Of a stretch of 64,000 nt of DNA, positions 8,893-20,637 are shown piece after piece. The stretch spans positions 4,056 through 68,055 of the forward strand of contig DHKI01000014.1 of assembly GCA_002404755.1 (NCBI GenBank), given 5' to 3'. Position numbers and translations under genes: made by a program. Positions within the stretch are counted from its first letter, which is position 1, and each line of letters starts with the position of its first letter. The DNA is from Clostridiales bacterium UBA4698. GTDB taxonomy: Bacteria; Bacillota; Clostridia; TANB77; UBA1234. Below the pieces are notes generated by a model. The model saw nothing but the letters and a program-made list of their open reading frames with translations, made no database searches and was not told where the DNA came from.

Positions 8893-10131
8893 TTATTCTT
8901 CGTTCTCAATGATTTTTTCTATTTCATCGCCAATTTTTTCAATTACACCAACAACTAGTGCATTTCCCATCATAAAATTTCTTTTTTTCTCTGTCATTCC
9001 TGTTTTAGTCCAATTATCAGGAAAACCGTTTATTCTTTCACATTCAATAGGAGTTAATAATCTAGGTTTTTTTGTTTTAAAATCTTCAATAACATGCGTT
9101 GTTCTACTAACACCGCCTTCGCTTGTAAGCATCGTTCTTGCAGGAGCATCTAAATTATCTGGAAATGGCATTGCACCTTCTGAATAGTAATAAGGTGTTC
9201 CATCCGGCTTAGTTCTAGGAATTCTTTTGCTCCCTTTTAAATAAGCGAATTTCTTTATTTGCTGTTCTGACAAAAAATATTTATTATCGATATCGTTTTC
9301 TTCCCTAATTTTTCTAAGCGGATAAATTAAATTATAATCCGATTCTGTTTTTACGGTGTATATGTCACCATTTGCCATAACTCCTGCATTATAAAACTCA
9401 CATTTAAAATTGTTACTTACATCAATTAAGTCTTTATAATCAGAAATACATGATTCCGACATAGCTGAATAAGAATCTTTTATCGGAAATTGTTTAACAA
9501 AAATTCCTTTTTTAAAAATAATATCTCTATTTTTCATCTTTTGCATTTCTTTATAGTAATTAGTAGTTTTATGATAAGCAAAAATATAGGTTCTTCTTCT
9601 TTTTTGTGGTAGTCCGTATTCACCAGCGTTAATAACACGCCACTCAACATCATATCCATTTTCATAAAAACTTCTTAAAATCATTCCAAAGTCTCTACCT
9701 CTTTGTTTGGCTGGAGATAATAATAATCTATCTACATTTTCTAATAATACAAAAGGCGGTCTTTTTATCGCTAATGTTTCTTCAATTGCCCACCATAAAG
9801 CTCCCTTTTTTCCTTCAATTCCTTTACTATTTGACAAAGTTTGAGCAACAGAATAATCCTGACAAGGAAATCCGCCAACTAGTAAACTATGATCTGGAAT
9901 ATCATGTTTATCAACTTCAAATATATCAATATTACTTACATCATTAAAACCGAATCTAGTTCCATAACAATTATATGCATCCTGCGTTTTAGTAGATGGC
10001 TCCCACTGATTAGCCCATAAAAATTTCCAATTACCATTTTCTTTAACCTTATCATTTTCAAATGAAACTTTATTTAACCCACATCTGAATCCACCAACTC
10101 CTGCAAATAACTCAACGCATGTCTTTTTCAT
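8893..10131 (-). CDS. DNA (cytosine-5)-methyltransferase
   Basis: C5-MTase motifs: I FAGVGG, IV GFPCQDYS, VI ENV, VIII QKRRR, X GNALV. The start is set at MKKTCVELF, which has a GAGGAGG RBS. Confidence 0.9.
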   Translation of the reverse strand: MKKTCVELFAGVGGFRCGLNKVSFENDKVKENGNWKFLWANQWEPSTKTQDAYNCYGTRFGFNDVSNIDIFEVDKHDIPDHSLLVGGFPCQDYSVAQTLSNSKGIEGKKGALWWAIEETLAIKRPPFVLLENVDRLLLSPAKQRGRDFGMILRSFYENGYDVEWRVINAGEYGLPQKRRRTYIFAYHKTTNYYKEMQKMKNRDIIFKKGIFVKQFPIKDSYSAMSESCISDYKDLIDVSNNFKCEFYNAGVMANGDIYTVKTESDYNLIYPLRKIREENDIDNKYFLSEQQIKKFAYLKGSKRIPRTKPDGTPYYYSEGAMPFPDNLDAPARTMLTSEGGVSRTTHVIEDFKTKKPRLLTPIECERINGFPDNWTKTGMTEKKRNFMMGNALVVGVIEKIGDEIEKIIENEE

Positions 10132-10302
10132 TTTATACCTCCTCATGTTGTTTAACATCAATAGTTATATTATAATATAGTCAATTGAAAAGATCAACCT
10201 CATAAGAAAACATTATACTAAATTTTCTCGTAAAGATTAACACTTCTGCATAAATATTTTATCTTATTTTTTCAATTAAGACAAGATCGAAAGGAGAATT
10301 TT

Positions 10303-11685
10303 ATGAAAAAAGGAAGATTATATAATAGACAAGAAATAGAACTTATTTCTAAATCTGTAATAGGAAAATCTGTAAATGATATTTTAAATGAAGAGAGTAT
10401 CACTATTGAAGATAAAGAAGCAAATAAAGGTGGACTAGGTCAATTAATTGAAAAATACTTATTTGGCATGGATAACAATAGTGATTCCGAACCCGATTTT
10501 ATGCCAGCTGGTATAGAATTAAAAGTAACACCTTATAAAAAAATTAAAGATGGCAAATTATCTGCTAAGGAAAGACTAGTCTTAAACATTATCGATTATA
10601 TGACAGAATATAAAAACACATTTAAAAATAGTCATTTTTGGTATAAAAATAATAAAATTCAATTATTATGGTATTTATGGGAGGCGAATAAGGATAAAAA
10701 AGATTTAATCATAACACATGAGAAGTTATTAGAATTAGAAAAATATGAAGACTTAAAACAAATTGAAGAGGATTGGAACTTTATTATTAATAAAATTCGT
10801 GAAGGAAAGGCACATGAGATTTCTGAAGCCGATACAATGTATTTAGGTGCGTGTCCTAAAGGAGCTAGTGCATTATCTACAAGAGAACAACCATTTAGTG
10901 ATATTCCATCAATGCAAAGGGCATTTTGTTTTAAAAATTCATATATGACTCAACTTGTTAGAAAATATATTGGAGACTATTCTAACGTTGAAAAAGTATT
11001 AAAAGGAACAAATGACACATTTAACGAATTTGTGTTTAACATTATTGATAAGTACAAGGGCAAATCTCAAAACGAGTTAATGAAGGAATTTAATATTGAC
11101 ACGAAAGCAAAAAATATTAATAGTATGCTGATAAGTAGAATGTTTAATGTAAAAAGTAAATTATCTGAGACTGAGGAATTTCAAAAAGCAAAAATCATTC
11201 CTAAGACTGTTAGAATTGAAGAAAATGGTAAAATAAAAGAATCAATCTCCTTTCCATACTTTAAGTATACAGAAATAATTAAGCAAGACTGGGAAAATAG
11301 TGATTTGAGAGAAGAACTTGAAACTACTAAATATATGTTCTTCGTATTTAAAATGGAAAATGGTGAGTATGTATTTAAAGGTATAAAATTATGGAATATG
11401 CCTGAAATCGATATTGAAACATCAGTTATGGAAATGTGGAAAAAAACATATAACACTATTAAAACTGGTAATATAGTAAAATCTATTGAAAATGGAATTA
11501 GAAAAACTAATTTCGTTGGAATGAGTGAAAATAGTGTTTGCCATGTTAGACCACATGGTAGAAACGCTAATGATGTTTGCAAATTACCCGTTGCTGATAA
11601 ATTAACTGGTGCAACTGAGTACACTAAGCATTGTTTTTGGATTAACAACAATTATATAAGAAAGATACTTAATGAATATATATAA
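10303..11685 (+). CDS. Type II restriction endonuclease, MutH/Sau3AI family (probable GATC specificity)
   Basis: The N-terminal D..E-x-K core (EPDFMPAGIELKVTP) is followed by KERLVLNII. REGKAHEIS, CHVRPHG and FWINNNYI match Sau3AI as I recall its sequence. It is divergent from the C5 MTase. Confidence 0.8.
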   Translation: MKKGRLYNRQEIELISKSVIGKSVNDILNEESITIEDKEANKGGLGQLIEKYLFGMDNNSDSEPDFMPAGIELKVTPYKKIKDGKLSAKERLVLNIIDYMTEYKNTFKNSHFWYKNNKIQLLWYLWEANKDKKDLIITHEKLLELEKYEDLKQIEEDWNFIINKIREGKAHEISEADTMYLGACPKGASALSTREQPFSDIPSMQRAFCFKNSYMTQLVRKYIGDYSNVEKVLKGTNDTFNEFVFNIIDKYKGKSQNELMKEFNIDTKAKNINSMLISRMFNVKSKLSETEEFQKAKIIPKTVRIEENGKIKESISFPYFKYTEIIKQDWENSDLREELETTKYMFFVFKMENGEYVFKGIKLWNMPEIDIETSVMEMWKKTYNTIKTGNIVKSIENGIRKTNFVGMSENSVCHVRPHGRNANDVCKLPVADKLTGATEYTKHCFWINNNYIRKILNEYI

Positions 11686-11816: not shown

Positions 11817-11868
11817 CATTGGAGCCAATAGCCGGAATCGAACCGGCGACCTACTGATTACGAATCAG
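11817..11868 (-). repeat. attL: displaced 3' portion of tRNA-Thr (52-nt direct repeat)
   Basis: Identical to 20559..20610. It covers the tRNA 3' end through the anticodon loop, and identity stops at 11869. Confidence 0.85.
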
Positions 11869-11888
11869 CGAAGTTTTAGAAATGAACA

Positions 11889-12059
11889 TTAGGTCCAGTA
11901 ATCGTTTATGTCTATTATTTCTATTTTTATTTTATAATTAGGATATTTTTTTGAGTAAAAAGGTTCTAGAAATCTCATGAAGCCTTCTTCATTTAGGTCG
12001 TTTTGACTTTCTACAGTTTCAAGAATTTTTTCTCCAGCTTTTATAATAATTTTACACAT
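11889..12059 (-). CDS. Hypothetical 56-aa protein at the prophage left end
   Basis: Hand-translated as MCKIIIKAGEKILETVESQNDLNEEGFMRFLEPFYSKKYPNYKIKIEIIDINDYWT. It has an AAAGGAGA RBS. It falls below the ORF-track size cut-off. Confidence 0.35.
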   Translation of the reverse strand: MCKIIIKAGEKILETVESQNDLNEEGFMRFLEPFYSKKYPNYKIKIEIIDINDYWT

Positions 12060-12140
12060 TTTTAATTTCTCCTTTACTTTTTTATTGTTTGATGTTAATA
12101 TTTAGTTATTGGAGGGAGATTGACTCCCTCCAGATTAACT

Positions 12141-12245
12141 TTAGAATGAATTGTGAAGTTCCATAATGTTGTTCCAAAGTTTGCGTTTTTTAGTTCTTAG
12201 CTTCCAGATAGCTAGGAACTTTTTTATTTTTTTGAATATTTTCAT
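12141..12245 (-). CDS. Hypothetical 34-aa basic peptide
   Basis: Sequence MKIFKKIKKFLAIWKLRTKKRKLWNNIMELHNSF with a GGGAGG RBS. It is followed by the hairpin ggaggga..tccctcc (12111-12131). Confidence 0.2.
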   Translation of the reverse strand: MKIFKKIKKFLAIWKLRTKKRKLWNNIMELHNSF

Positions 12246-12289
12246 ATTTTAACCTCCCTTCATTTAGATTTTTTGGTCAGCTTCGCACA

Positions 12290-12860
12290 AATTAAAGAGA
12301 ATACTAGAACGGCATCTCGTTAATTTTCAGATGCATATTGCCCCGAAATTAAGAGCTACGAAGCCCTACCCTGTCCCCCCAAAATGGAATAACAGGTGTA
12401 AGCACTATCGTGCTTACACCTGTTACTTTTAAAAAGAGAAAACTTAAACCATATGTCAATGTGCCCCGCTAAAGCGGGGTGTCGGAAGATTTTTTTATTG
12501 GGCGGGCTGTGCTCGCACGATAAAAAAATACGCAACAATTGACATATGGCCTCTCGCTCCCGGGTAGTAGAGAGCCTGACAAACTAACAACAAACAAAAA
12601 TAGCAGTACTACTAACTAGCACCGCTACAAAGAAACTAATTTTAGCCGATGTCCCCCGGTTTGTTACTGCACGCCCCCCCACGCCGAGCACGGAGTAAGG
12701 ATATGGAGATAGTGAAATTATTCGTTTCCCAATAGAATTACCCATATTCGAATAATGGAACGGTCGGAATATCCTTACTTTGTGCCCCCCTGAGACAACT
12801 AGGAAGGTAATATATTAGGAAACCAAGGTGGTGTCCTTACAAACATTAAATAATATTCAT
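12290..12860. other. G+C-enriched, highly structured non-coding block (phage origin/packaging region or a large ncRNA)
   Basis: It contains nested perfect hairpins, listed in the findings, and no ORF with an RBS. The composition differs clearly from the AT-rich flanks. Confidence 0.45.
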
Positions 12861-12951
12861 ATATTTATTTTTACATCGGCGAACTTTATATATAAACTTT
12901 ATAATATTATCTTGAAAATCAATTACCTTATATTTTAACTTGAAGATTATT

Positions 12952-13182
12952 TTATAACTGTTTCTTTGTTCTTGGATATGGTTTCATTTCATCGGTTAAT
13001 CCTAGTATATAATCTACACTCACATTGTAAAAAGTAGATAAATTTATTAGTACAGTTGTTGGAATATCATTTTTTCCTATTTCGTATTGATTGTATCCAG
13101 TTTGTGACATATTTAGAATTTGTCCAACTTGTTTTTGTGTTAAGTCCTTATCTTCTCTTAGTTCTCTAATTCTTTTATACAT
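12952..13182 (-). CDS. XRE-family HTH repressor (Cro/CI-like)
   Basis: LTQKQVGQILNMSQTGYNQYEIGKN is a typical HTH_3 segment. It is divergent from the phage + strand genes. Confidence 0.85.
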   Translation of the reverse strand: MYKRIRELREDKDLTQKQVGQILNMSQTGYNQYEIGKNDIPTTVLINLSTFYNVSVDYILGLTDEMKPYPRTKKQL

Positions 13183-13215
13183 AAACATGCCCCCCTTTGC
13201 GAAAAATTATACGAT

Positions 13216-13288
13216 AACTTAAAATAAGTTGTTGACATTAAACTTAAAATAAGTTAAATTTAAAGTGTACCTTAACTTAAATTAAGTT
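13216..13288 (+). promoter_or_regulatory. Switch region with three palindromic operators and a sigma-A-like promoter
   Basis: AACTTAAAATAAGTT occurs at 13216-30 and 13241-55, and AACTTAAATTAAGTT at 13274-88. TTGACA (13232-37) is followed by a 17-nt spacer and TAAATT (13255-60). Confidence 0.6.
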
Positions 13289-13422
13289 AGGCTACACGCA
13301 TTGAAAAAGACTAACTATCAACACTTATTTTTTTCATGCATGCTTCCAAAGCCCAGATAGCAAAAGGCGCGCTTGTCTATCTGGAAATGGAAACAATTTT
13401 AAATTATAAGGAGGTGTTATAT

Positions 13423-13740
13423 ATGTTTACAGCTAAGAAGCAAGAAGCATATTTAAAAGGTTTTAAAATCGTAGAACCTGGAACATTTAAAAGTAAAGAT
13501 GATGGACATGAAGTTGCTTATGATGGATATAGAGCAGTTATATTGTGTTTAAATAATAAAAATGGCGAATTAATTGATTGCCCTTGTAGAATTCCAAATG
13601 TTCCGCAAGGCGAAGAAATATACGTAAAATTAAGAAATTTGCCTATCATGACTAAAATTTCAACAGATATTGAAATTCAATTCGGAAAAGATGGCAAATC
13701 ACCAAAGTATTTTATAACAGGTTTTGAAGTTGCTAAATAA
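13423..13740 (+). CDS. Hypothetical 105-aa protein; size and position are compatible with a gpV-like ssDNA-binding protein
   Basis: AAGGAGG RBS. It is the first gene of the rightward operon. The assignment rests only on size and position. Confidence 0.35.
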   Translation: MFTAKKQEAYLKGFKIVEPGTFKSKDDGHEVAYDGYRAVILCLNNKNGELIDCPCRIPNVPQGEEIYVKLRNLPIMTKISTDIEIQFGKDGKSPKYFITGFEVAK

Positions 13741-13846
13741 CGATATAAATTAGCGAAAGCTATTTATATAAAATTTACTAAAGATAAGTATATAAATGAG
13801 GGTCCCCCCTTTTTATATAAATATACTAAAGAAAGGAGTTTTGCAC

Positions 13847-14140
13847 ATGTCTAAACTAAAAGAATTACTAAAGAATAAGAAAATGTTTGTATGTATGGCT
13901 ATGATGTGCTTATGTTTGGCATTAGGTTCTATCGCTTTTGCTGGTAGTGGTGAATCTGCTGCATCAAATCTTGATTTTTCTGTTGTAACTAATGCTTTAA
14001 CTGCAGCCGTTACACCTGCTGACATATTAACAATCATTTCTAAAGTAATTGTAATTGGTATACCATTTGTTCTTGCATGGTTTGGTTTCAGATTTTTGTG
14101 GAGCAAATTCAGAGGTGCAGTTACTCGTGGAAAGATGTAG
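13847..14140 (+). CDS. Major coat protein candidate (pVIII-like)
   Basis: The signal peptide ends in AFA|GSGE. The mature ~65-aa part has an acidic N-terminus, one TM helix (IISKVIVIGIPFVLAWFGF) and a basic tail (RFLWSKFRGAVTRGKM). Confidence 0.6.
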   Translation: MSKLKELLKNKKMFVCMAMMCLCLALGSIAFAGSGESAASNLDFSVVTNALTAAVTPADILTIISKVIVIGIPFVLAWFGFRFLWSKFRGAVTRGKM

Positions 14141-14146
14141 GCTTAT

Positions 14147-14170
14147 GGGGGGATAACTCCCCCCTTTCCT
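14147..14170 (+). terminator. G6/C6 hairpin after the coat gene
   Basis: GGGGGG (14147-52), loop ataact, CCCCCC (14159-64), followed by ttt. Confidence 0.45.
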
Positions 14171-14188
14171 ATATTTTAGGAGGTTAAT

Positions 14189-14935
14189 ATGGCAGATTAT
14201 TTAAAGGGTTCAATAAATCCTAAAAACCTTGTAGATACTGCTAAATATAATATTGAATTTAGAAAATCACATCCAGATTATTTTTATCCAGAAGGTTTAA
14301 TATCTTTTTGTGGTTCTCAAGGTTCAGGGAAAACTTTATCGGCTGTGCAATACATCATAAAGATTTTAAAAGATTATCCTAAAGCTGTTTTGGTTACTAA
14401 TGTTCATATAGATGGTATTAAAAATCAAGTCGTGGAGTATTCTTCACTTCAAGAACTTATAAATCTATTTGATTTGGTGCATAACGGCGAATATGGGGTT
14501 ATTTATTTTATTGATGAAATACAAGTATTATTCAATGCTTTGCTTAGACGTAATTTAGATGTTAGGACATTAGAAACTATTTCACAACAACGTAAGCAAA
14601 GGAAACATATAATTGGAACCGCTCAAATATTCGCAAAAATCGATAAGATTTTTAGGGAACAAATGCAAGGTGTTGTACTTTGTAACAAGTTTTTAAATTG
14701 CATTCAATATAATCAACGTATAGATGGTCAAAAGGTTGTTGAAGTAGATGGAAAGCTTAAGTACGATGTCGAACGTAATTATATATGGTTCCATAGTCCA
14801 AAACTTTATAATTTGTATGACACTTCAAAAATTATTTCTGCTTATAAAAAAGAGTATGAAAATAATGCTTTTGATATGTCTGCACTTGAAAAAGTTTTGA
14901 AAGAAATTAACGAAGGGGGTACATGTAATGCCTGA
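14189..14935 (+). CDS. Zot/pI-like morphogenesis P-loop ATPase
   Basis: Walker A CGSQGSGKTLS and Walker B VIYFIDEIQ. 248 aa with no TM segment of its own. Confidence 0.65.
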   Translation: MADYLKGSINPKNLVDTAKYNIEFRKSHPDYFYPEGLISFCGSQGSGKTLSAVQYIIKILKDYPKAVLVTNVHIDGIKNQVVEYSSLQELINLFDLVHNGEYGVIYFIDEIQVLFNALLRRNLDVRTLETISQQRKQRKHIIGTAQIFAKIDKIFREQMQGVVLCNKFLNCIQYNQRIDGQKVVEVDGKLKYDVERNYIWFHSPKLYNLYDTSKIISAYKKEYENNAFDMSALEKVLKEINEGGTCNA

Positions 14936-15077
14936 TATAGATTATCAAGAATTATTGGTTTTGATTGCTAGTATAATTAAAATTGCTTTACCTTTTGGTG
15001 TTATTACTGGTTTTGTAGAATGGGCAGTAACATTTTTCTTAAAATGTGTATTCCCTAGAAGATTTAAGGGGGATTGA
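14928..15077 (+). CDS. 49-aa membrane peptide overlapping the ATPase stop codon
   Basis: Sequence MPDIDYQELLVLIASIIKIALPFGVITGFVEWAVTFFLKCVFPRRFKGD. Its ATG lies within the last codons of the ATPase gene. Confidence 0.4.
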   Translation: MPDIDYQELLVLIASIIKIALPFGVITGFVEWAVTFFLKCVFPRRFKGD

Positions 15078-15079
15078 TT

Positions 15080-15262
15080 ATGCCAGTAGACAATTATGAA
15101 ACTTTAGTTAGTGAAGTTTCTAGTACAAATGAATTATTAGAAGAACAGAATATAAAAATTGACAATTTTAACTCTACAGTTTCAATTTTATTATTTGCTG
15201 TTCTTTTTTTTAAAGCTGGAGAGTTTATTCATAGGATTTTTGTTCGTTTTTATAAGTATTAG
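15080..15262 (+). CDS. 60-aa protein with a C-terminal TM segment (minor-coat-like size)
   Basis: MPVDNYETL...VSILLFAVLFFKAGEFI. It is tightly packed with its neighbours. Confidence 0.4.
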   Translation: MPVDNYETLVSEVSSTNELLEEQNIKIDNFNSTVSILLFAVLFFKAGEFIHRIFVRFYKY

Positions 15263-15271
15263 GAGGTTTTT

Positions 15272-15442
15272 ATGAAAAGAGATTGTTTTGCATATGTTAG
15301 CGATAAAAAATGTAATGCTTTATATGAAACTAATTGTTGTATCTGCAATTTTTATAAACCTAAAAAGAAATATTTAGAAGAGTTATCAAAATTGACAGAA
15401 TATTCCCCATTAAAAGGTGGTAATAGGCATTTAGGACGTTAG
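15272..15442 (+). CDS. 56-aa Cys-rich protein
   Basis: Sequence MKRDCFAYVSDKKCNALYETNCCICNFYKPKKKYLEEL... with an AGGAGG RBS. Confidence 0.4.
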   Translation: MKRDCFAYVSDKKCNALYETNCCICNFYKPKKKYLEELSKLTEYSPLKGGNRHLGR

Positions 15443-15457
15443 GTGGTGTTTATACTA

Positions 15458-17443
15458 ATGAAGAAATTTATATATACATTTTTAATTGCATTAAGCTTGC
15501 TAGGAATAACAAGTTGTTGTTTTGCCTCTGCTAATTGGGGTGTTTATGATTTAGAGAAGTTTTTAAGTTGTTATGGCTATGATTTTGATTTTGCTAATGC
15601 AAATTATACGAATAATTATAAATATTCAAATTTGCAGTCTAATATAAGTAGGTCTGACTATCCGTTAATAGTTTTTGATATGAGAAATGGTGGAAGTTTT
15701 TATCCTTCTAACAACTCTGTACCTTGTGATTTTGTTTTTTTTAATGCTTATAATGCTGTTTCATCATCTAGTAAACTTATTTTAACTAAAAATGCTTCTG
15801 GAGATTATTTTTATTATTTTGGTTATGGTTCATATGGTTATGCTGTAGATATCGATAATAATACTGTTTATTGTTCTTTTAATGCCTATTATACAAATGA
15901 TTATTGGAACGAAAGAAATTTAAAGGTTTCCCATGAAGAATTTGTTTCAACTGCCTTTCAAGAATATTTAATAAAAAGATATGGTTTAATTTACACAGAG
16001 ACAACAATTTATGCTAATGATGGTAAGACTCCTCTTATTGTTCCACAAGGTGGGGAAATAAAACAATCTTCTTTTAATGATGTTGCTTATAAAGGCAAAA
16101 TCACTTATGGTGCCACAACAGAAACTACTAATATAACTTATACTAGTGGTTTTACTGCTGATACTAATTATGATTTGTTTTTAGAAGTTTATAAACTTGG
16201 TGATAGTTACGATAACGGTATAACTGCTTATCCTGTGGATACTATCGATTTAGGTACTGTATCTACTTCTGTTACTAGTAAAAAAATAGATATAAAGAAG
16301 GCTTCAAGTAGTTCTTTTTATGTTTATAAACTGTGTGTAGGTAAAAATAATTTTGACACTTCTGGTACTAATGATGTTTATTTATCTACTAAATGGTTAT
16401 TATTCAATGATAATATTGTAAGAAGATATAAAGATTTCTCTCGATGTCATACTATGCGATTTTTAAGTTTGATTGCTTATGATTATGGTTATAACTATGA
16501 CGATGAAGATACTTCAGATGTTCCTGGTTCTGATACTGAATATTTTTTCAATTATCCTTATGTTATTTCTTCACCTGGTGGACGTTGGAGTGGAGATAAC
16601 TTATCATTTAAAATTGGTTATAAATTTGAAGAATTTGGTGTCGATATTGATACTTGCTATTTGTATTTTGAAAAGTATGGTATAAATGGCTCTGGTGAGC
16701 TCTTTTTAATAGATACTTTAACGATACGTCCTTTTGATACTAAATATTATAATTTTGATGAATTTTATTATGAGTTTGATGTTTTAGATTTTGATAATTC
16801 TTCTGCTCCGTTTTTTAAATGTGATGAAGGTGTATCTTATTGTTATATTCCATATTTAAGAAGTAATTATGGTAGTGGATTATATCCAGAATATTCTTAT
16901 AAATGTATTTATTTTTATACTAATGAATTTGCTTTTAATATGGCAACTTTTGACGATATTATTACAAAGGACGATAAAGATGGCTTTGTTAGTAAATTAT
17001 TAAATGTATTCAAAGGGTGTTTTATTCCTTCTTCTGAATTTATGACATCATACTGGAATGAATTGTATTTGTTTTTTAAAGTTAAACTAGGGTTTTTATG
17101 GGATTTGGTAATGTTTTTTCCAGAATTAATAAATAATATTATTTCTGTTTTAAAAGCAGAATTATTACTAACTTCATTTACAACTCCAGAGCTTAGTATC
17201 CCTACTTTTATGGGTGATGGTAGTGAGGTTGTTATACTAGAAAGTATTACTTTTTCACCATATGAATACTGGGGGCAAAGTAAAGTTTTTGCTGATTTAT
17301 ATACGTTATATTTAAATTTAATGGACTTTTTAGTCTTTTTTGCATTGTTTAATTATGGACTTGTAGTTGTTGCTAAAATTTTAGGTTTTTGGGTTCCTGA
17401 AGCAAGTAGTGATAGTTCTAAAAAATCTACAAAAAAGGAGTGA
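15458..17443 (+). CDS. Large secreted, C-terminally anchored protein (pIII-like adsorption protein candidate)
   Basis: N-terminal signal peptide (LLGITSCCFA). The protein is rich in Tyr, Asn and Phe. It has hydrophobic helices near the C-terminus and a short basic end. Confidence 0.5.
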   Translation: MKKFIYTFLIALSLLGITSCCFASANWGVYDLEKFLSCYGYDFDFANANYTNNYKYSNLQSNISRSDYPLIVFDMRNGGSFYPSNNSVPCDFVFFNAYNAVSSSSKLILTKNASGDYFYYFGYGSYGYAVDIDNNTVYCSFNAYYTNDYWNERNLKVSHEEFVSTAFQEYLIKRYGLIYTETTIYANDGKTPLIVPQGGEIKQSSFNDVAYKGKITYGATTETTNITYTSGFTADTNYDLFLEVYKLGDSYDNGITAYPVDTIDLGTVSTSVTSKKIDIKKASSSSFYVYKLCVGKNNFDTSGTNDVYLSTKWLLFNDNIVRRYKDFSRCHTMRFLSLIAYDYGYNYDDEDTSDVPGSDTEYFFNYPYVISSPGGRWSGDNLSFKIGYKFEEFGVDIDTCYLYFEKYGINGSGELFLIDTLTIRPFDTKYYNFDEFYYEFDVLDFDNSSAPFFKCDEGVSYCYIPYLRSNYGSGLYPEYSYKCIYFYTNEFAFNMATFDDIITKDDKDGFVSKLLNVFKGCFIPSSEFMTSYWNELYLFFKVKLGFLWDLVMFFPELINNIISVLKAELLLTSFTTPELSIPTFMGDGSEVVILESITFSPYEYWGQSKVFADLYTLYLNLMDFLVFFALFNYGLVVVAKILGFWVPEASSDSSKKSTKKE

Positions 17444-17447
17444 TTGT

Positions 17448-17720
17448 ATGGTTGTTTCTGGTATTTTAATAATTTTTGGTAAATTGCTCGAAGGCATGTT
17501 TTCAATTCTTCCAGCATTACCTCAAGTCGCTTGGCTTTCTACGATATTAACTTTTTTTAATAGTACTATTTGTAAAGGTATTCCTCTACTTTGTTTTTTT
17601 ATAAGACCAGAAACCTTAATTATAGGTTTTAGTACTGCGTCTGTTTTGTTTGTATTTCAATATACATATTTTTTAATTTTATGGGTAGCTAAAAAGCTTC
17701 CTGTTGTTAATATAAAATAG
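17448..17720 (+). CDS. 90-aa polytopic membrane protein (pVI-like size)
   Basis: MVVSGILIIFGKLLEGMF... contains several hydrophobic helices. It starts 5 nt after the preceding stop. Confidence 0.45.
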   Translation: MVVSGILIIFGKLLEGMFSILPALPQVAWLSTILTFFNSTICKGIPLLCFFIRPETLIIGFSTASVLFVFQYTYFLILWVAKKLPVVNIK

Positions 17721-17784
17721 CAACTTTGCGGTAGTGCCAGCTTGCTGGCACTGCAGCAAAGTGCGTTTAAAGGAAGGTGTTTTA

Positions 17785-18057
17785 ATGGAAATAATAGAAT
17801 TGTTAAATTTTTTATGGGATATAATTGTTGGACTGGTTTTTATTTATATAATGGTTAATATTACTGATGCTTTTATAGATAATCTTATGGCTGAAAGAGA
17901 TTTAAAAGATGCAAAAGCTAGTTTAATTCGTAAGAAAACATGGTTAGAAAGTAGAAAAATAGACTTAATTGAAAATATTATAAATAATTCGTCTAATTTA
18001 GATATAAATTTTAATGTTAATTTTAATGATGATTTAGATGATGAATATGAAGAATAA
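17785..18057 (+). CDS. 90-aa N-terminally anchored protein with an acidic tail
   Basis: MEIIELLNFLWDIIVGLVFIYIMV... ends in ...DDLDDEYEE. AAGGAAGG RBS. Confidence 0.4.
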   Translation: MEIIELLNFLWDIIVGLVFIYIMVNITDAFIDNLMAERDLKDAKASLIRKKTWLESRKIDLIENIINNSSNLDINFNVNFNDDLDDEYEE

Positions 18058-18172
18058 AAGTTTTAGTTCGCAAGATATAAAAACTTTAAAAAAGATTTAT
18101 GAGTTTTTGTTATCTAAAAATAAATTTGAATTTGCATCTTTAATAATGGATATTATACTTGATGCTGATTAA
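18047..18172 (+). CDS. Possible 41-aa ORF
   Basis: MKNKSFSSQDIKTLKKIYEFLLSKNKFEFASLIMDIILDAD overlaps the preceding stop codon. No clear RBS. Confidence 0.2.
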   Translation: MKNKSFSSQDIKTLKKIYEFLLSKNKFEFASLIMDIILDAD

Positions 18173-18220
18173 CATAATTTTTTAAAAGGTGTGATTTTTG
18201 ATGGTTTACCATAATTTTTA

Positions 18221-18250
18221 CTCGCCGGTCCCCCAGTAACACCCGGCGAG
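18221..18250 (+). promoter_or_regulatory. GC-rich hairpin upstream of rep (candidate double-strand origin or nick site)
   Basis: ctcgccgg (18221-28) pairs with ccggcgag (18243-50). The 14-nt loop tcccccagtaacac carries part of the GTCCCCC motif. Confidence 0.4.
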
Positions 18251-18340
18251 TGTCCCGATTTAGGGAATTTTCGTTTACATAATGCAAAATTTATACTTGC
18301 ATTATAATTTACATAATTAGAAAAAGCGAGGTAATTTTTT

Positions 18341-19384
18341 ATGATTGATACAGTAAAAATTTATACCCGTATTGATGAACATATTTATAAAATAATTCGT
18401 TTTAATTCTAACATAAAATGCATGTACAATAAAGCATCAGGTGAAGTTTTTTATGAGATTATAAACGATAGTCTTGAAGGTACATATGATAGTAGGCTTA
18501 GTGTTCGTGTTTTTAGTGGTTCTAAGTATGGATTTATATATAAAAATAGTTATTGTTTAGAGATTGAAGGTAGTTATCATAAAATAATGAAAGGGCAAAA
18601 TGCATTTAATGGTTATTATAGTATTCAAGAAATCACAAATGGTTTTATTACTCTAGTAGAAAATGCATATAATATTACTCTTCCTTCACTCAATCATTGG
18701 TTTTTATGCAGAGCAGATTTAACTAAATGTTTTGATTTATATAATCAAAATAATGTTTGCAAATATATAAATTCTTTAAGATATTTATCTTATCCGCGTA
18801 GAAATATAAAATTTTTTGAAAATGAAACATTATATTGTGCAGGAGATGTCAGCACTTTAAAAATATATAATAAGTATTTAGAATTTTGTAAAAATGACAA
18901 ATTTAAGGTTTCTAAGTTTACTAATATTTTTGATATAACAACAAAAATACAAGGTTTTGTTAGATTTGAATGTGAAATTAAAAAAAAGAAGTTAATGACA
19001 ATTTATAATAAAAAATATTTAAGAGTTACGTTGATTAATTATAAGGATTTAGAGAAAGTATGGAGTGATGAATTTATGAAGATATTAAAATTTGATAAAG
19101 AAACGTACGAACGTGTAAAAACTAAAGAAGAAGTTGTCGAAAGATTAAATAAAAATTTTAAAGCAGGAAAAGCTTTGAGATTGTACCAATTTTTTATAAC
19201 GATAATAAATGACGGATATAATGATGTGAAAAACAAGACTTCAAGTACTTCATTTTATAGAAATATAAGTGATTTAAAATCTGTTGGCATTGATTTTTCT
19301 CAGAATAATTTTGAAGAAATTCCCAGGCTAGATTTAAACAATATAATAGATTTTGATCCATTTGTTTGGCAGGAGGTTATCTGA
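18341..19384 (+). CDS. Rolling-circle replication initiator (phage CRI / gpII / Rep_trans-like)
   Basis: The pattern LCRADLTKCFDL, LKIYNKYLEF and VRFECEIKKKKL matches the RxDl / YxK / RxE blocks of this Rep class, as recalled. Confidence 0.65.
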   Translation: MIDTVKIYTRIDEHIYKIIRFNSNIKCMYNKASGEVFYEIINDSLEGTYDSRLSVRVFSGSKYGFIYKNSYCLEIEGSYHKIMKGQNAFNGYYSIQEITNGFITLVENAYNITLPSLNHWFLCRADLTKCFDLYNQNNVCKYINSLRYLSYPRRNIKFFENETLYCAGDVSTLKIYNKYLEFCKNDKFKVSKFTNIFDITTKIQGFVRFECEIKKKKLMTIYNKKYLRVTLINYKDLEKVWSDEFMKILKFDKETYERVKTKEEVVERLNKNFKAGKALRLYQFFITIINDGYNDVKNKTSSTSFYRNISDLKSVGIDFSQNNFEEIPRLDLNNIIDFDPFVWQEVI

Positions 19385-19385
19385 T

Positions 19386-19604
19386 ATGCTTAGTTATATA
19401 ATAACCTATAAAAATGGTAGCAGATTGGGTGCACTATGTACAGACTTTAGAATAAAAGACAATCTTTTGATTATAGAGGGGTATGACGACGTTAATTATG
19501 CAGATGGTCTGGAAAGAAAACATTGGATGTCAAGGGTTGAGTGGTCAGAAATAAAAGAATTTAAGGTAGAAGTTTTGACGGATGATGAAATAGATAACAT
19601 TTAA
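19386..19604 (+). CDS. Hypothetical 72-aa protein
   Basis: AGGAGG RBS. It lies between rep and int. Confidence 0.4.
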   Translation: MLSYIITYKNGSRLGALCTDFRIKDNLLIIEGYDDVNYADGLERKHWMSRVEWSEIKEFKVEVLTDDEIDNI

Positions 19605-19671
19605 AATATATCAGATAATAAAAAAATTATAAAAGAAAGCGATTACAATCCTATAGAATGGAAGTGATTTT

Positions 19672-20547
19672 ATGAGATTATCTAACGCATTAGATTTGTT
19701 TTTTAACGATTTAATTGTTAGAGGTATGCAAAAAGATACTATAAGAGCATATAAAACGCAAATAATGCCTTTTATTAAGTTTACAAACAATATTTGTATA
19801 GATAATATAAATTATGATACATATTGCGATTATATTCGTTTTTTAAGAAATAAAAATTTGAGCATGACAACAATACATACATATGCTAATTCATTAAAAG
19901 TATTTTTTAGATTTTTATATAAAAACTCTTATATGAAAGTTAATTTAGCTGATATTATTGTCCTTCCTCGTGCTTATAAAACAGAACCTAATATTTTAAA
20001 TCCAGATATTATTCTAAAAATAATAAATGAATATGATTTAACTGATATGATAGCTTGCAGAAATATTTTGATTTTAATATTAGCTTTTGATTGTGGACTT
20101 CGTCGTTCTGAGATTTGCAGGCTTAAAATAGAAGATTTCATGTTTGACAGTAATGTTTTTAAAGTATCTGGTAAAGGTAATAAGAATAGAATTGTGCCTA
20201 TTTCTGAAACATTAGCCTTTTATTTAGAAAAATATTTATCTTTTAGAGAGAATACAAACGGTCCATTATTATTAACAAAAGATGAAAAAGAGTTAACAAG
20301 CTATGCTCTCAGCTCATTATTCAGAAGAATTAAGAAAAAATATAAGCTAAGCAAGTTTAACCCACATTTGTTAAGACATAGTTATGCAACATTATTTTTA
20401 TTGAATGGTGGAGATTCACTCGCACTTCAAAGGCTTTTAGGTCACACAACGTTAACAATGACTAATAGATATGTGCATTTGGCACAAAGTTTAAAGATTG
20501 CAGAGCAAAAAAAATATAGCCCACTGACTAAAAATGGGCTACATTAA
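19672..20547 (+). CDS. Tyrosine recombinase / phage integrase (XerC/D-like)
   Basis: GLRRSEICRLK (catalytic Arg), HLLRHSYAT, LLGHTTLTMTNRYVH (H-x-x-R ... Y). It is adjacent to the tRNA. Confidence 0.9.
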   Translation: MRLSNALDLFFNDLIVRGMQKDTIRAYKTQIMPFIKFTNNICIDNINYDTYCDYIRFLRNKNLSMTTIHTYANSLKVFFRFLYKNSYMKVNLADIIVLPRAYKTEPNILNPDIILKIINEYDLTDMIACRNILILILAFDCGLRRSEICRLKIEDFMFDSNVFKVSGKGNKNRIVPISETLAFYLEKYLSFRENTNGPLLLTKDEKELTSYALSSLFRRIKKKYKLSKFNPHLLRHSYATLFLLNGGDSLALQRLLGHTTLTMTNRYVHLAQSLKIAEQKKYSPLTKNGLH

Positions 20548-20558
20548 ATCTTTAAAAC

Positions 20559-20637
<79 letters not shown>

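Follow-up and report, generated by a model that had tools for sequence, protein, structure and literature searches.

A conserved, hairpin-rich non-coding block as a candidate complementary-strand origin and packaging region in an inovirus-like prophage of a Clostridiales bacterium

Introduction

The intergenic region of the Ff phages (f1, M13 and fd) carries the packaging hairpin A and the hairpins B and C of the (-) origin, which are recognised by the host RNA polymerase holoenzyme. To our knowledge, what is known of the filamentous phages that infect Gram-positive gut bacteria comes almost entirely from metagenomes, and their cis-acting signals are still unmapped. Host RNA polymerase, and not Rep, also recognises the single-strand origins (sso) of rolling-circle plasmids (PMC5703833), among which the ssoA type has RSB (e.g. 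TTATGCCGAGAAAATTT) and CS-6 (TAGCGT) as its hallmarks (PMC4598088). In Frpo single-stranded DNA promoters the UP, -35 and -10 elements are present along with their complements (PMC11541004); the Frpo/ssi promoters of conjugative plasmids are those of Masai and Arai (1997), as described in PMC11541004. The hairpin layout that is proposed below has analogues in the M13 minus-strand origin (PMC7948647) and in the ssoA origins, which RNA polymerase primes (PMC5703833).

Here we analyse a non-coding block (12290-12860) within a prophage of the low-G+C gut Firmicute Clostridiales bacterium UBA4698; coordinates refer to the window, that is, the whole 64,000-nt stretch of contig DHKI01000014.1 that was examined. 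Like the Ff intergenic region (~500 nt), the block is the largest non-coding stretch of an inovirus-type genome and is densely hairpinned. Folded, conserved viral-strand hairpins in non-coding DNA, as in Ff, were found in it, and both regions have at least one hairpin that makes sense on the viral strand alone, a long imperfect hairpin that is a candidate morphogenetic signal, and a promoter-like -35 motif shown as duplex within a hairpin. In contrast to Ff, the block has no sequence similarity to the described region, the host is Gram-positive, the (+) origin apparently lies elsewhere, upstream of rep, and the copy in the window is without a -10-like element. The block also differs in having a predicted leftward terminator and in sitting among leftward genes of the temperate module (XRE, small ORFs, integrase and att).

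Results

Prophage context and choice of the viral strand

Two 52-bp att repeats delimit a prophage of 8.7 kb (window 11869-20610) that is integrated in tRNA-Thr (Table 1). On the + strand it encodes a coat-like protein (phrog_2186), a Zot/pI ATPase (PF05707) and a 666-aa protein; the Rep is of the gpII type (PF05144 and PF05155), a tyrosine integrase and, on the - strand, an XRE repressor are also encoded, and phrog_702 is among the profile matches of the prophage proteins. Zot/pI ATPase, gpII-type Rep, small coat protein, a size of 5-10 kb and genes mostly on one strand make up the inovirus pattern, and judged by this gene content the element is a temperate inovirus-like (filamentous) prophage. 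Among 50,697 deposited phage records the closest Rep shares 26% identity, and 691 Rep relatives were found in metagenomes; the lineage is therefore known from metagenomes only.

In all characterised inoviruses it is the gene-sense strand that is packaged. The prophage has all its structural and replication genes on the + strand, whose composition is rich in T (37%) and poor in C (12%), and by analogy this strand is taken as the presumptive viral strand. Two small ORFs of 34 and 56 aa run leftward. The block was considered as the operator region of the XRE repressor and this was rejected, because the three operators AACTTAAAWTAAGTT sit elsewhere, at 13216-13288.

Composition and folding of the block

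The first-pass annotation, made from the sequence letters, had described a G+C-enriched block without coding capacity between small leftward ORFs and an XRE gene, and these points held when they were examined. The small ORFs 11889-12059 and 12141-12245 lie on one side and the XRE gene on the other. The G+C content of 12290-12860 is 42.4%, compared with 28.6% for the prophage and 30.9% for the whole window, so that the composition is indeed distinct from the AT-rich surroundings. The block contains just ORFs of 32-60 aa, and in relatives these are disrupted by indels whose lengths are not divisible by three; no ORF in it is conserved.

All seven base pairings that had been listed are present at the coordinates given for them; they are Watson-Crick throughout except for two G-T pairs in the 14-bp helix 12691-12704/12769-12782. 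Compared with dinucleotide shuffles, the folding z-scores of the block are -6.7 (+) and -5.9 (-) in the DNA model and -6.8 (+) and -7.1 (-) in the RNA model, with 0/100 shuffles as stable in either model. Table 1 lists the hairpins and signals. An AT-rich conserved tail runs from M6 up to the XRE stop codon (12951).

Table 1. Positions of the hairpins, predicted signals and flanking features in window coordinates.
Feature	Position	Strand	Remarks
Left att copy (3' part of tRNA-Thr)	11817-11868		Exact 52-bp direct repeat
Leftward basic ORF, 34 aa	12141-12245	-	Strong RBS; directly left of the block
Terminator-like hairpin	12192-12220	+	Antisense inside ORF 12141-12245; left edge of the block
M1, perfect 15-bp hairpin	12391-12424		AACAGGTGTAAGCAC-TATC-GTGCTTACACCTGTT; arms 12391-12405/12410-12424
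M2, core hairpin	12449-12549	+	Outer stem 12449-12460/12538-12549; z -6.2
Core box TGTCAA/TTGACA	12454-12459/12539-12544		Inside the outer stem
Core inner hairpin	12464-12479		ccccgc-taaa-gcgggg
Core T7/A7 stem, G+C-rich tip	12490-12528		Between unpaired GGAAGA (12484-12489) and unpaired TACGC (12529-12533)
M3 hairpin	12551-12574	+	CTCTC...GAGAG; at the place of the -10 hexamer of relatives
Predicted leftward intrinsic terminator	12579-12628	-	Hairpin 12600-12628, then T-rich run 12579-12599; terminator scan
Weak leftward promoter-like site (putative)	12639-12667	-	GTAACA-17-TAAAAT; within the fully conserved CTAATTTTAGCCGATG stretch
M5, imperfect long hairpin, 92 nt	12691-12782	+	14-bp base helix (two G-T pairs), middle helix, ATTATTCG/CGAATAAT
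M5 inner pairing	12717-12724/12749-12756		ATTATTCG/CGAATAAT
M6, small conserved hairpin	12817-12837		AGGA-A-ACCA...TGGT-G-TCCT; in the strongly conserved stretch CTAGGAAGGTAAT...GGTGTCCTTA
XRE-family repressor gene	12952-13188	-	Three operators AACTTAAAWTAAGTT at 13216, 13241 and 13274, outside the block
Second non-coding region, probable (+) origin	18205-18317	+	Just upstream of rep
Right att copy	20559-20610		Within intact tRNA-Thr(CGT), 20562-20637

By blastn the block gave no match in the 50,697 phage records or in a plasmid collection, and an exact scan of IMG/VR with TAGGAAGGTAAT...TAGGAAACCAAG gave zero matches. An exact 16-mer scan of IMG/VR with CTAATTTTAGCCGATG returned 9 matches, of which the three inspected were coding sequence; since none extends past ~34 nt of the block, the matches were treated as chance and not as block homologues. 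A G-quadruplex formed by the C-runs read on the - strand was dropped as a candidate because the C-runs are not conserved in the L002 lineage.

Homologues of the block and compensatory changes

XRE homologue searches showed that XRE is a promiscuous module, found beside unrelated genes in many elements. Sought in this way, the block was absent from L186-L204, and its homologues were retrievable only where XRE was identical or 99% identical to that of the window (L215, L214/L206/L211, L208, L210, L207/L209 and L212, with blocks 84-92% identical). The XRE-matched contigs represent at least three different chromosomal sites, and some are mosaics of each other. A further lineage (L002-L004) is a prophage at another tRNA with Rep 88% and block 71% identical; there XRE and its operators differ and the block is kept. 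The window and seven other distinct sequences were combined in an 8-sequence alignment (A3; 71-92% identity).

RNAalifold predicted 126 pairs on this alignment, 19 of them with compensatory double changes. In the cleaned structure of 118 pairs, pairing holds in 97.4% of the cells, while shuffles give 91.7% and slid controls 38-45%. Both sides had changed in 18 pairs; slid controls gave 2-5 such pairs and shuffles 10.8 +/- 1.9, with 0/500 attaining 18. The independent lineages behind these numbers are few (three variants for M5, two for the left half), which makes the covariation statistics supportive and not definitive. The changes are located in the core outer stem (3 compensatory pairs), in M3 (helix 6; 4/6 pairs changed on both sides) and above all in M5 (helices 10-13), the most variable part of the block, where 10 pairs changed on both sides and 3 positions show three pair types. 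The 15 pairs of M1 are invariant in all 8 aligned sequences (15/15), the 71%-identity lineage included, and the L002 lineage has a hairpin of other sequence instead of M3. We concluded that the block has structure beyond chance that is conserved with compensatory changes in relatives. The alignment of homologues had been suggested as a check on the original description, and its outcome, conserved helices and double-sided changes in 18 pairs, supports that description.

A core module shared with distant relatives

Two groups of more distant relatives (L017/L019 and L021-L024; Rep 67-68% identical) are without overall similarity to the block, yet a core module is common to all. It consists of a 5' arm ending in TGTCAA, an unpaired GGAAGA, a T4-7/A4-7 stem, an unpaired TAC(G/T)C and a 3' arm starting with TTGA(C/T)A. 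This architecture was found in L002, L017 (two copies), L021 and L062. The last is an IMG/VR sequence, circular with a 29-nt terminal overlap, in which the module comes directly after rep; its Rep has no BLASTP similarity to the window Rep (E = 0.12) and gives a sub-threshold Rep_trans match only. In comparisons made by hand and by folding, with no covariance model built, six core variants adopt the same DNA fold (z -4.9 to -7.4), and the arms co-vary freely outside the box: the box-adjacent position is A-T, T-A or G-C depending on the lineage and the box itself is unchanged. Regular-expression and descriptor searches of ~70 loci with Rep ~50% identical, aimed at the core or at fork-junction promoter hairpins, found essentially none beyond the close clade; the module is therefore clade-restricted.

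When the stems were compared with promoter elements, we observed in L017a, L017b and L021 that the stem spans the -35 and a 16-17-nt spacer and ends at an unpaired or mismatched TATAAT or TAGAAT. L017 and L021 thus show paired DNA between about -36 and -13, a non-template -10 in single-stranded form and, upstream of these, the A-tract stem. Their -35 and -10 elements would also serve an ordinary rightward double-stranded promoter. Because the non-template elements are on the 3' arm, the 5' arm, together with the DNA lying left of it, would serve as template, and the RNA would run leftward; this is the sense of a (-) strand primer and of both small leftward ORFs.

The window and L002 copies both retain intact A-tract and -35 stems, and M3 stands at the -10 position. 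No convincing -10 was found in the window core or in the L002 lineage. A -10 brought into register by M3 as an extruded hairpin (TAACAA or TAAACT at effective spacers of 16 and 15 nt) was rejected as too weak and inconsistent. The single-stranded DNA promoter model is thus complete only in the relatives L017 and L021, and it is incomplete in the window. We also noted in L017 and L021 a G+C-rich hairpin of other sequence at the same place as M1, 25-40 nt 5' of the core.

Strand bias and transcription signals

The alignment was folded in both orientations with RNA and DNA models (alifold). The energy of M5 is -39.6 on the + strand and -21.3 on the - strand in the RNA model, and -16.3 and -8.6, respectively, in the DNA model. 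The two strand-specific G-U or G-T pairs that had been pointed out in its 14-bp helix are present, the + strand form of M5 has about twice the stability of the - strand form, and the G-T pairs recur in all three sequence variants; such pairs do not tell single-stranded DNA apart from an RNA of the + strand. For M1 and the core, stability does not differ between the strands. The opposite bias was found for the hairpin 12600-12628, with RNA-model energies of -9.2 on + and -18.2 on -.

This last hairpin contains G+C and is followed by a T-run on the - strand, both conserved in L002, and from this arrangement it is a predicted leftward intrinsic terminator, whose assignment to the - strand the first reading had missed. 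The A/C-rich linker that had been described there is genuine; the + strand is A/C-rich because the T-run of the terminator lies on the - strand, where the same letters read as a hairpin and its T-rich tail. No terminator was found in the scan between the XRE stop codon and this hairpin, and 12630-12951 is therefore probably transcribed leftward. On the + strand, a consensus scan of 12230-12830 found no promoter with at least 9/12 consensus positions, such scans being weak evidence. A + strand-specific structure without a + strand transcription route points to single-stranded DNA.

A separate candidate for the (+) origin

A Rep nick hairpin together with Rep-binding repeats is the classic layout of a rolling-circle origin. 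Such a structure was found not in the block but in the second non-coding region (18205-18317), where iterons TTTAC(C)ATAAT occur at 18205, 18274 and 18308 (within 160 nt upstream of rep). The hairpin at 18221-18250 has a co-varying stem and a conserved loop that always ends in AGTAACAC. Its conservation extends to four lineages, among which the stem reads ctcgccgg/ccggcgag, ctcgacgg/ccgtcgag or ctcaggacg/cgtcctgag. From this layout the region is probably the (+)-strand origin. With a candidate upstream of rep, there is therefore no need to place the (+) origin in the block.

Comparison with RNA families and sso motifs

Large ornate RNAs of the ROOL/GOLLD kind had been named as another possible identity of the block, with a covariance-model search as the check. 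A cmscan of the whole window against all 4227 Rfam families reported two tRNAs only at the gathering threshold. At E <= 10 over 11850-13350 there was nothing better than E = 0.41, and LhrC, RsaA and mir-5595 appeared as noise; the weak LhrC-like match, found at 12579-12666 with E 0.6, scores 24 bits where the gathering score is 110 and is not significant. The corresponding regions of five relatives gave nothing in Rfam. ROOL, GOLLD, HEARO, raiA and the other families thus gave no match near the gathering score, and RNAs of the first four types were rejected with no covariance-model match at any useful threshold. The block is like them in size (~570 nt), in its many helices and in a prophage location near a tRNA gene. 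It differs in being modular, with relatives of the L017/L021 type keeping the core alone, in being partly opposite-strand-specific, and in not being framed by a + strand promoter and terminator; the + strand terminator-like hairpin lies at the left edge. The identification as a large ornate RNA was given up on these grounds.

Membership in the ssoA type was also rejected: CS-6 has no exact match in the block on either strand, and the best RSB match, 12/17, is at chance level (reached by 112/500 shuffles).

Discussion

The block is most likely the principal cis-acting non-coding region of an inovirus-type phage, acting mostly as folded + strand single-stranded DNA. On balance, we favour its being a complementary-strand origin together with packaging signals, interleaved with transcription signals. 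A (-)-strand origin and packaging signal had been among the roles first suggested for the block, and it is the reading that fits best with the inovirus context, the rank of the block as the largest non-coding region, the separate (+) origin, the + strand preference of M5, the -35 stem and, in relatives, the fork-junction -10. Against it count the window copy, which is without a -10, the equal stability of M1 and the core on the two strands, the lack of similarity to phage or plasmid records and of the ssoA hallmarks, and the ~70 loci of more distant Rep relatives in which the core is missing.

In the mechanism we propose, RNA polymerase recognition, priming, packaging and the role of each hairpin are all things that we infer. 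The core would mimic a duplex promoter, with the A-tract stem as a UP-like element and the -35 TTGACA held in a stem whose other positions co-vary. Host RNA polymerase would bind it on the incoming or newly displaced + strand and start an RNA running leftward along the + strand template. This RNA would prime synthesis of the complementary (-) strand, and it might read on into the two small leftward ORFs. M1, which is 25 nt downstream of the core in the leftward direction, could set a limit to the primer or offer a binding site for a protein; for the packaging (morphogenetic) signal, M5 is the leading candidate. The terminator at 12579-12628 would end XRE transcription and insulate the small leftward ORFs.

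The alternative of most weight, which we hold to be unlikely, is that the structures act in RNA, either as the 3' UTR of the XRE mRNA (12951 to 12600) and the 5' leader of the small ORFs or as one or more + strand sRNAs. For example, transcripts from the core promoters of L017 and L021, ending at a bidirectional terminator beside XRE, could be antisense regulators of lysis and lysogeny. The mid-block terminator looks like a genuine - strand signal, leftward read-through from XRE has no other terminator before it, the relatives have a rightward TTGACA/TTGATA-17-TAGAAT/TATAAT promoter followed by a terminator, the RNA folding z-scores are as strong as the DNA ones, and there is the LhrC-like match, which is not significant. 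However, M5 folds poorly on the - strand, the very strand of XRE read-through. For a + strand RNA the scanned interval offers no promoter of the required quality and has a + strand terminator just upstream, and the right-facing promoter of the relatives is missing from the window, whose core is without a -10. A double-stranded promoter would also have no need of a co-varying 5' arm that pairs with the -35 and spacer, and no Rfam family matches. Rather less probable is a purely double-stranded regulatory region, in which the palindromes bind a repressor, an integrase or excisionase, or a nucleoid protein and the hairpins are irrelevant. M1 is a perfect 34-bp palindrome with an invariant stem, as for a dimeric binding site, the sequence of the TTGACA box is conserved while its surroundings vary, and the block lies between divergently regulated genes. 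Such a region predicts neither compensatory changes across arms 80-90 nt apart nor G-T pairs on one strand; moreover, the three XRE operators are of different sequence and position, the L002 lineage keeps the block despite a different XRE and different operators, and the att core is at least 420 bp off.

Two further readings were weighed. That the block holds the (+)-strand origin, i.e. a site of Rep nicking or termination, seems very improbable. Ff phages have the (+) origin, the (-) origin and the packaging signal together in one intergenic region, and the L062 and L021 cores sit downstream of rep, both of which could speak for it. Against this, the region directly upstream of rep is the better candidate, with its iterons, co-varying stem and invariant loop, and the core also accompanies a Rep without detectable similarity, which would be unexpected of a Rep-specific site. 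A decayed insertion or a functionless chance structure is hardly credible: the composition of the block is unlike that of the rest of the phage, as in many foreign inserts, but the compensatory conservation across lineages at different sites effectively refutes it, and the core recurs in distant inoviruses.

Returning to the complementary-strand origin, the core resembles the Frpo/ssi promoters in having a stem-loop pseudo-duplex of an A+T-rich UP-like tract and a -35 with their complements, a stem base that carries an unpaired or mismatched -10 (in L017 and L021), and a direction of transcription along the hairpin-bearing single strand towards genes of the complementary strand. In contrast to them, it belongs to a phage replicon and not to a plasmid leading region, its hairpin is shorter (~100 nt), there is no sequence homology, and the window lineage is without a -10. 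The ssoA, ssoU, ssoT and ssoW origins of Firmicutes plasmids are likewise orientation-dependent, non-coding and strongly folded (150-300 nt), with a flexible position relative to rep, and their recognition by RNA polymerase rather than Rep fits the occurrence of the core with unrelated Reps. The conserved motifs of the core are different from theirs, namely TGTCAA/TTGACA, GGAAGA and TACGC.

A more specific proposal, which we put forward only tentatively and consider rather unlikely as it stands, is that the core is a Frpo-type single-stranded DNA promoter of Gram-positive inoviruses, active only when the + strand is single-stranded, during infection or progeny-strand production. Leftward polymerase would then both prime the complementary strand and transcribe the 34-aa and 56-aa ORFs before any double-stranded form exists; in the window lineage the replacement of the -10 by M3 would imply a variant mode of recognition. 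More generally, the presence of the core with unrelated Reps, together with the fork-junction -35/-10 layout, suggests by analogy that the single-stranded DNA promoter principle of f1, ssoA plasmids and Frpo may also operate in Gram-positive gut inoviruses.

The probable (+) origin upstream of rep, the promoter-mimicking hairpin and the + strand-specific long hairpin form a first concrete candidate map of cis-elements for Gram-positive gut inoviruses. If confirmed, these elements might be used for phagemid-type vectors and packaging systems in Clostridia-like hosts; if the signals prove to be ordinary transcription elements, the finding would be a routine one. Two minor observations concern the small leftward ORFs. 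They have no good double-stranded promoter, and in the prophage the predicted terminator at 12579-12628 would shield them from XRE transcription. By eye, a similar ORF is seen to the left of the core in L021.

Variation and composition of the hairpin-rich block

In an alignment of the non-coding block from the window and its relatives (eight sequences), the long hairpin M5 is the most variable segment, and the flanks on both sides of it are near-identical. Some block variants are mosaics: in the related loci L207/L209 and L212 the left part of the block resembles that of L215, and the M5 hairpin resembles that of L214, a sign that recombination has taken place inside the block. On the + strand, runs of at least four C cluster in the block, which has six of them (window 12341-12790 compared with 13190-18230); they often read TGT or GTG followed by C4-7. 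C makes up only 12% of the + strand of the phage genome. These C-runs are only partly conserved in L002, the locus with an 88%-identical Rep.

Origin candidate and repressor region

The region upstream of rep is a probable (+)-strand origin (Table). Its repeats and hairpin are kept in four lineages, and the hairpin stem co-varies around an invariant loop with the end AGTAACAC.

Table. Coordinates of features in the window and in related loci.
Feature	Position	Strand	Remarks
C5 DNA methyltransferase-like ORF	window 8893-10161	-	
Promoter-like site TTGACT-16-TAGAAT	window 12120-12147	+	antisense to 34-aa ORF
34-aa ORF	window 12141-12245	-	very basic; strong RBS
Strong terminator-like hairpin	window 12192-12220	+	antisense to 34-aa ORF
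Palindrome AACTTAAAWTAAGTT, three copies	window 13216-13288		between XRE and first rightward gene
(+)-strand origin candidate	window 18205-18317		5' of rep; three TTTAC(C)ATAAT repeats and hairpin 18221-18250
tRNA-like gene, long variable arm	L002 5054-5139; L017 5243-5332		Rfam tRNA, 40-45 bits

A cutoff of E <= 1e-10 gives 2040 homologues of the 78-aa XRE repressor (window 12952-13188); the 120 best ones listed share 76-100% identity with it. Among the homologue contexts fetched (L186-L204) are inoviruses whose Rep belongs to another family (Rep_OBD in L202), as well as elements carrying DUF2726 genes; the repressor behaves as an exchangeable immunity module. The three palindromes beside it overlap the promoter TTGACA-17-TAAATT and are probably the XRE operators. 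Other repeats, ATATCTTT...AAAGATAT, adjoin a different XRE in L002. In the related inoviruses L002 and L017 a tRNA-like gene separates XRE from the first rightward gene; this interval of the window's phage lacks such a gene.

Related elements and prophage surroundings

The ORF pattern of L001, an 8516-bp MAG contig, recurs with a period of 5595 bp, and the assembly probably joined repeated copies of a circular inovirus genome (~5.6 kb) into a concatemer. Its Rep is 51% identical to that of the window, and the core hairpin of the block was not seen in the 8516 bp. Directly left of the prophage (window 8893-11685), the methyltransferase-like ORF is accompanied by a 460-aa ORF, for which a MutH/Sau3AI-type domain was found in the identical locus L205; the two look like a restriction-modification pair adjoining the att site. 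The promoter-like site and terminator-like hairpin antisense to the 34-aa ORF could delimit a possible antisense RNA of ~75 nt. By eye, an ORF resembling the 34-aa ORF was found left of the core in L021, and, at the equivalent position in L002, a similar hairpin with a T-run after it.
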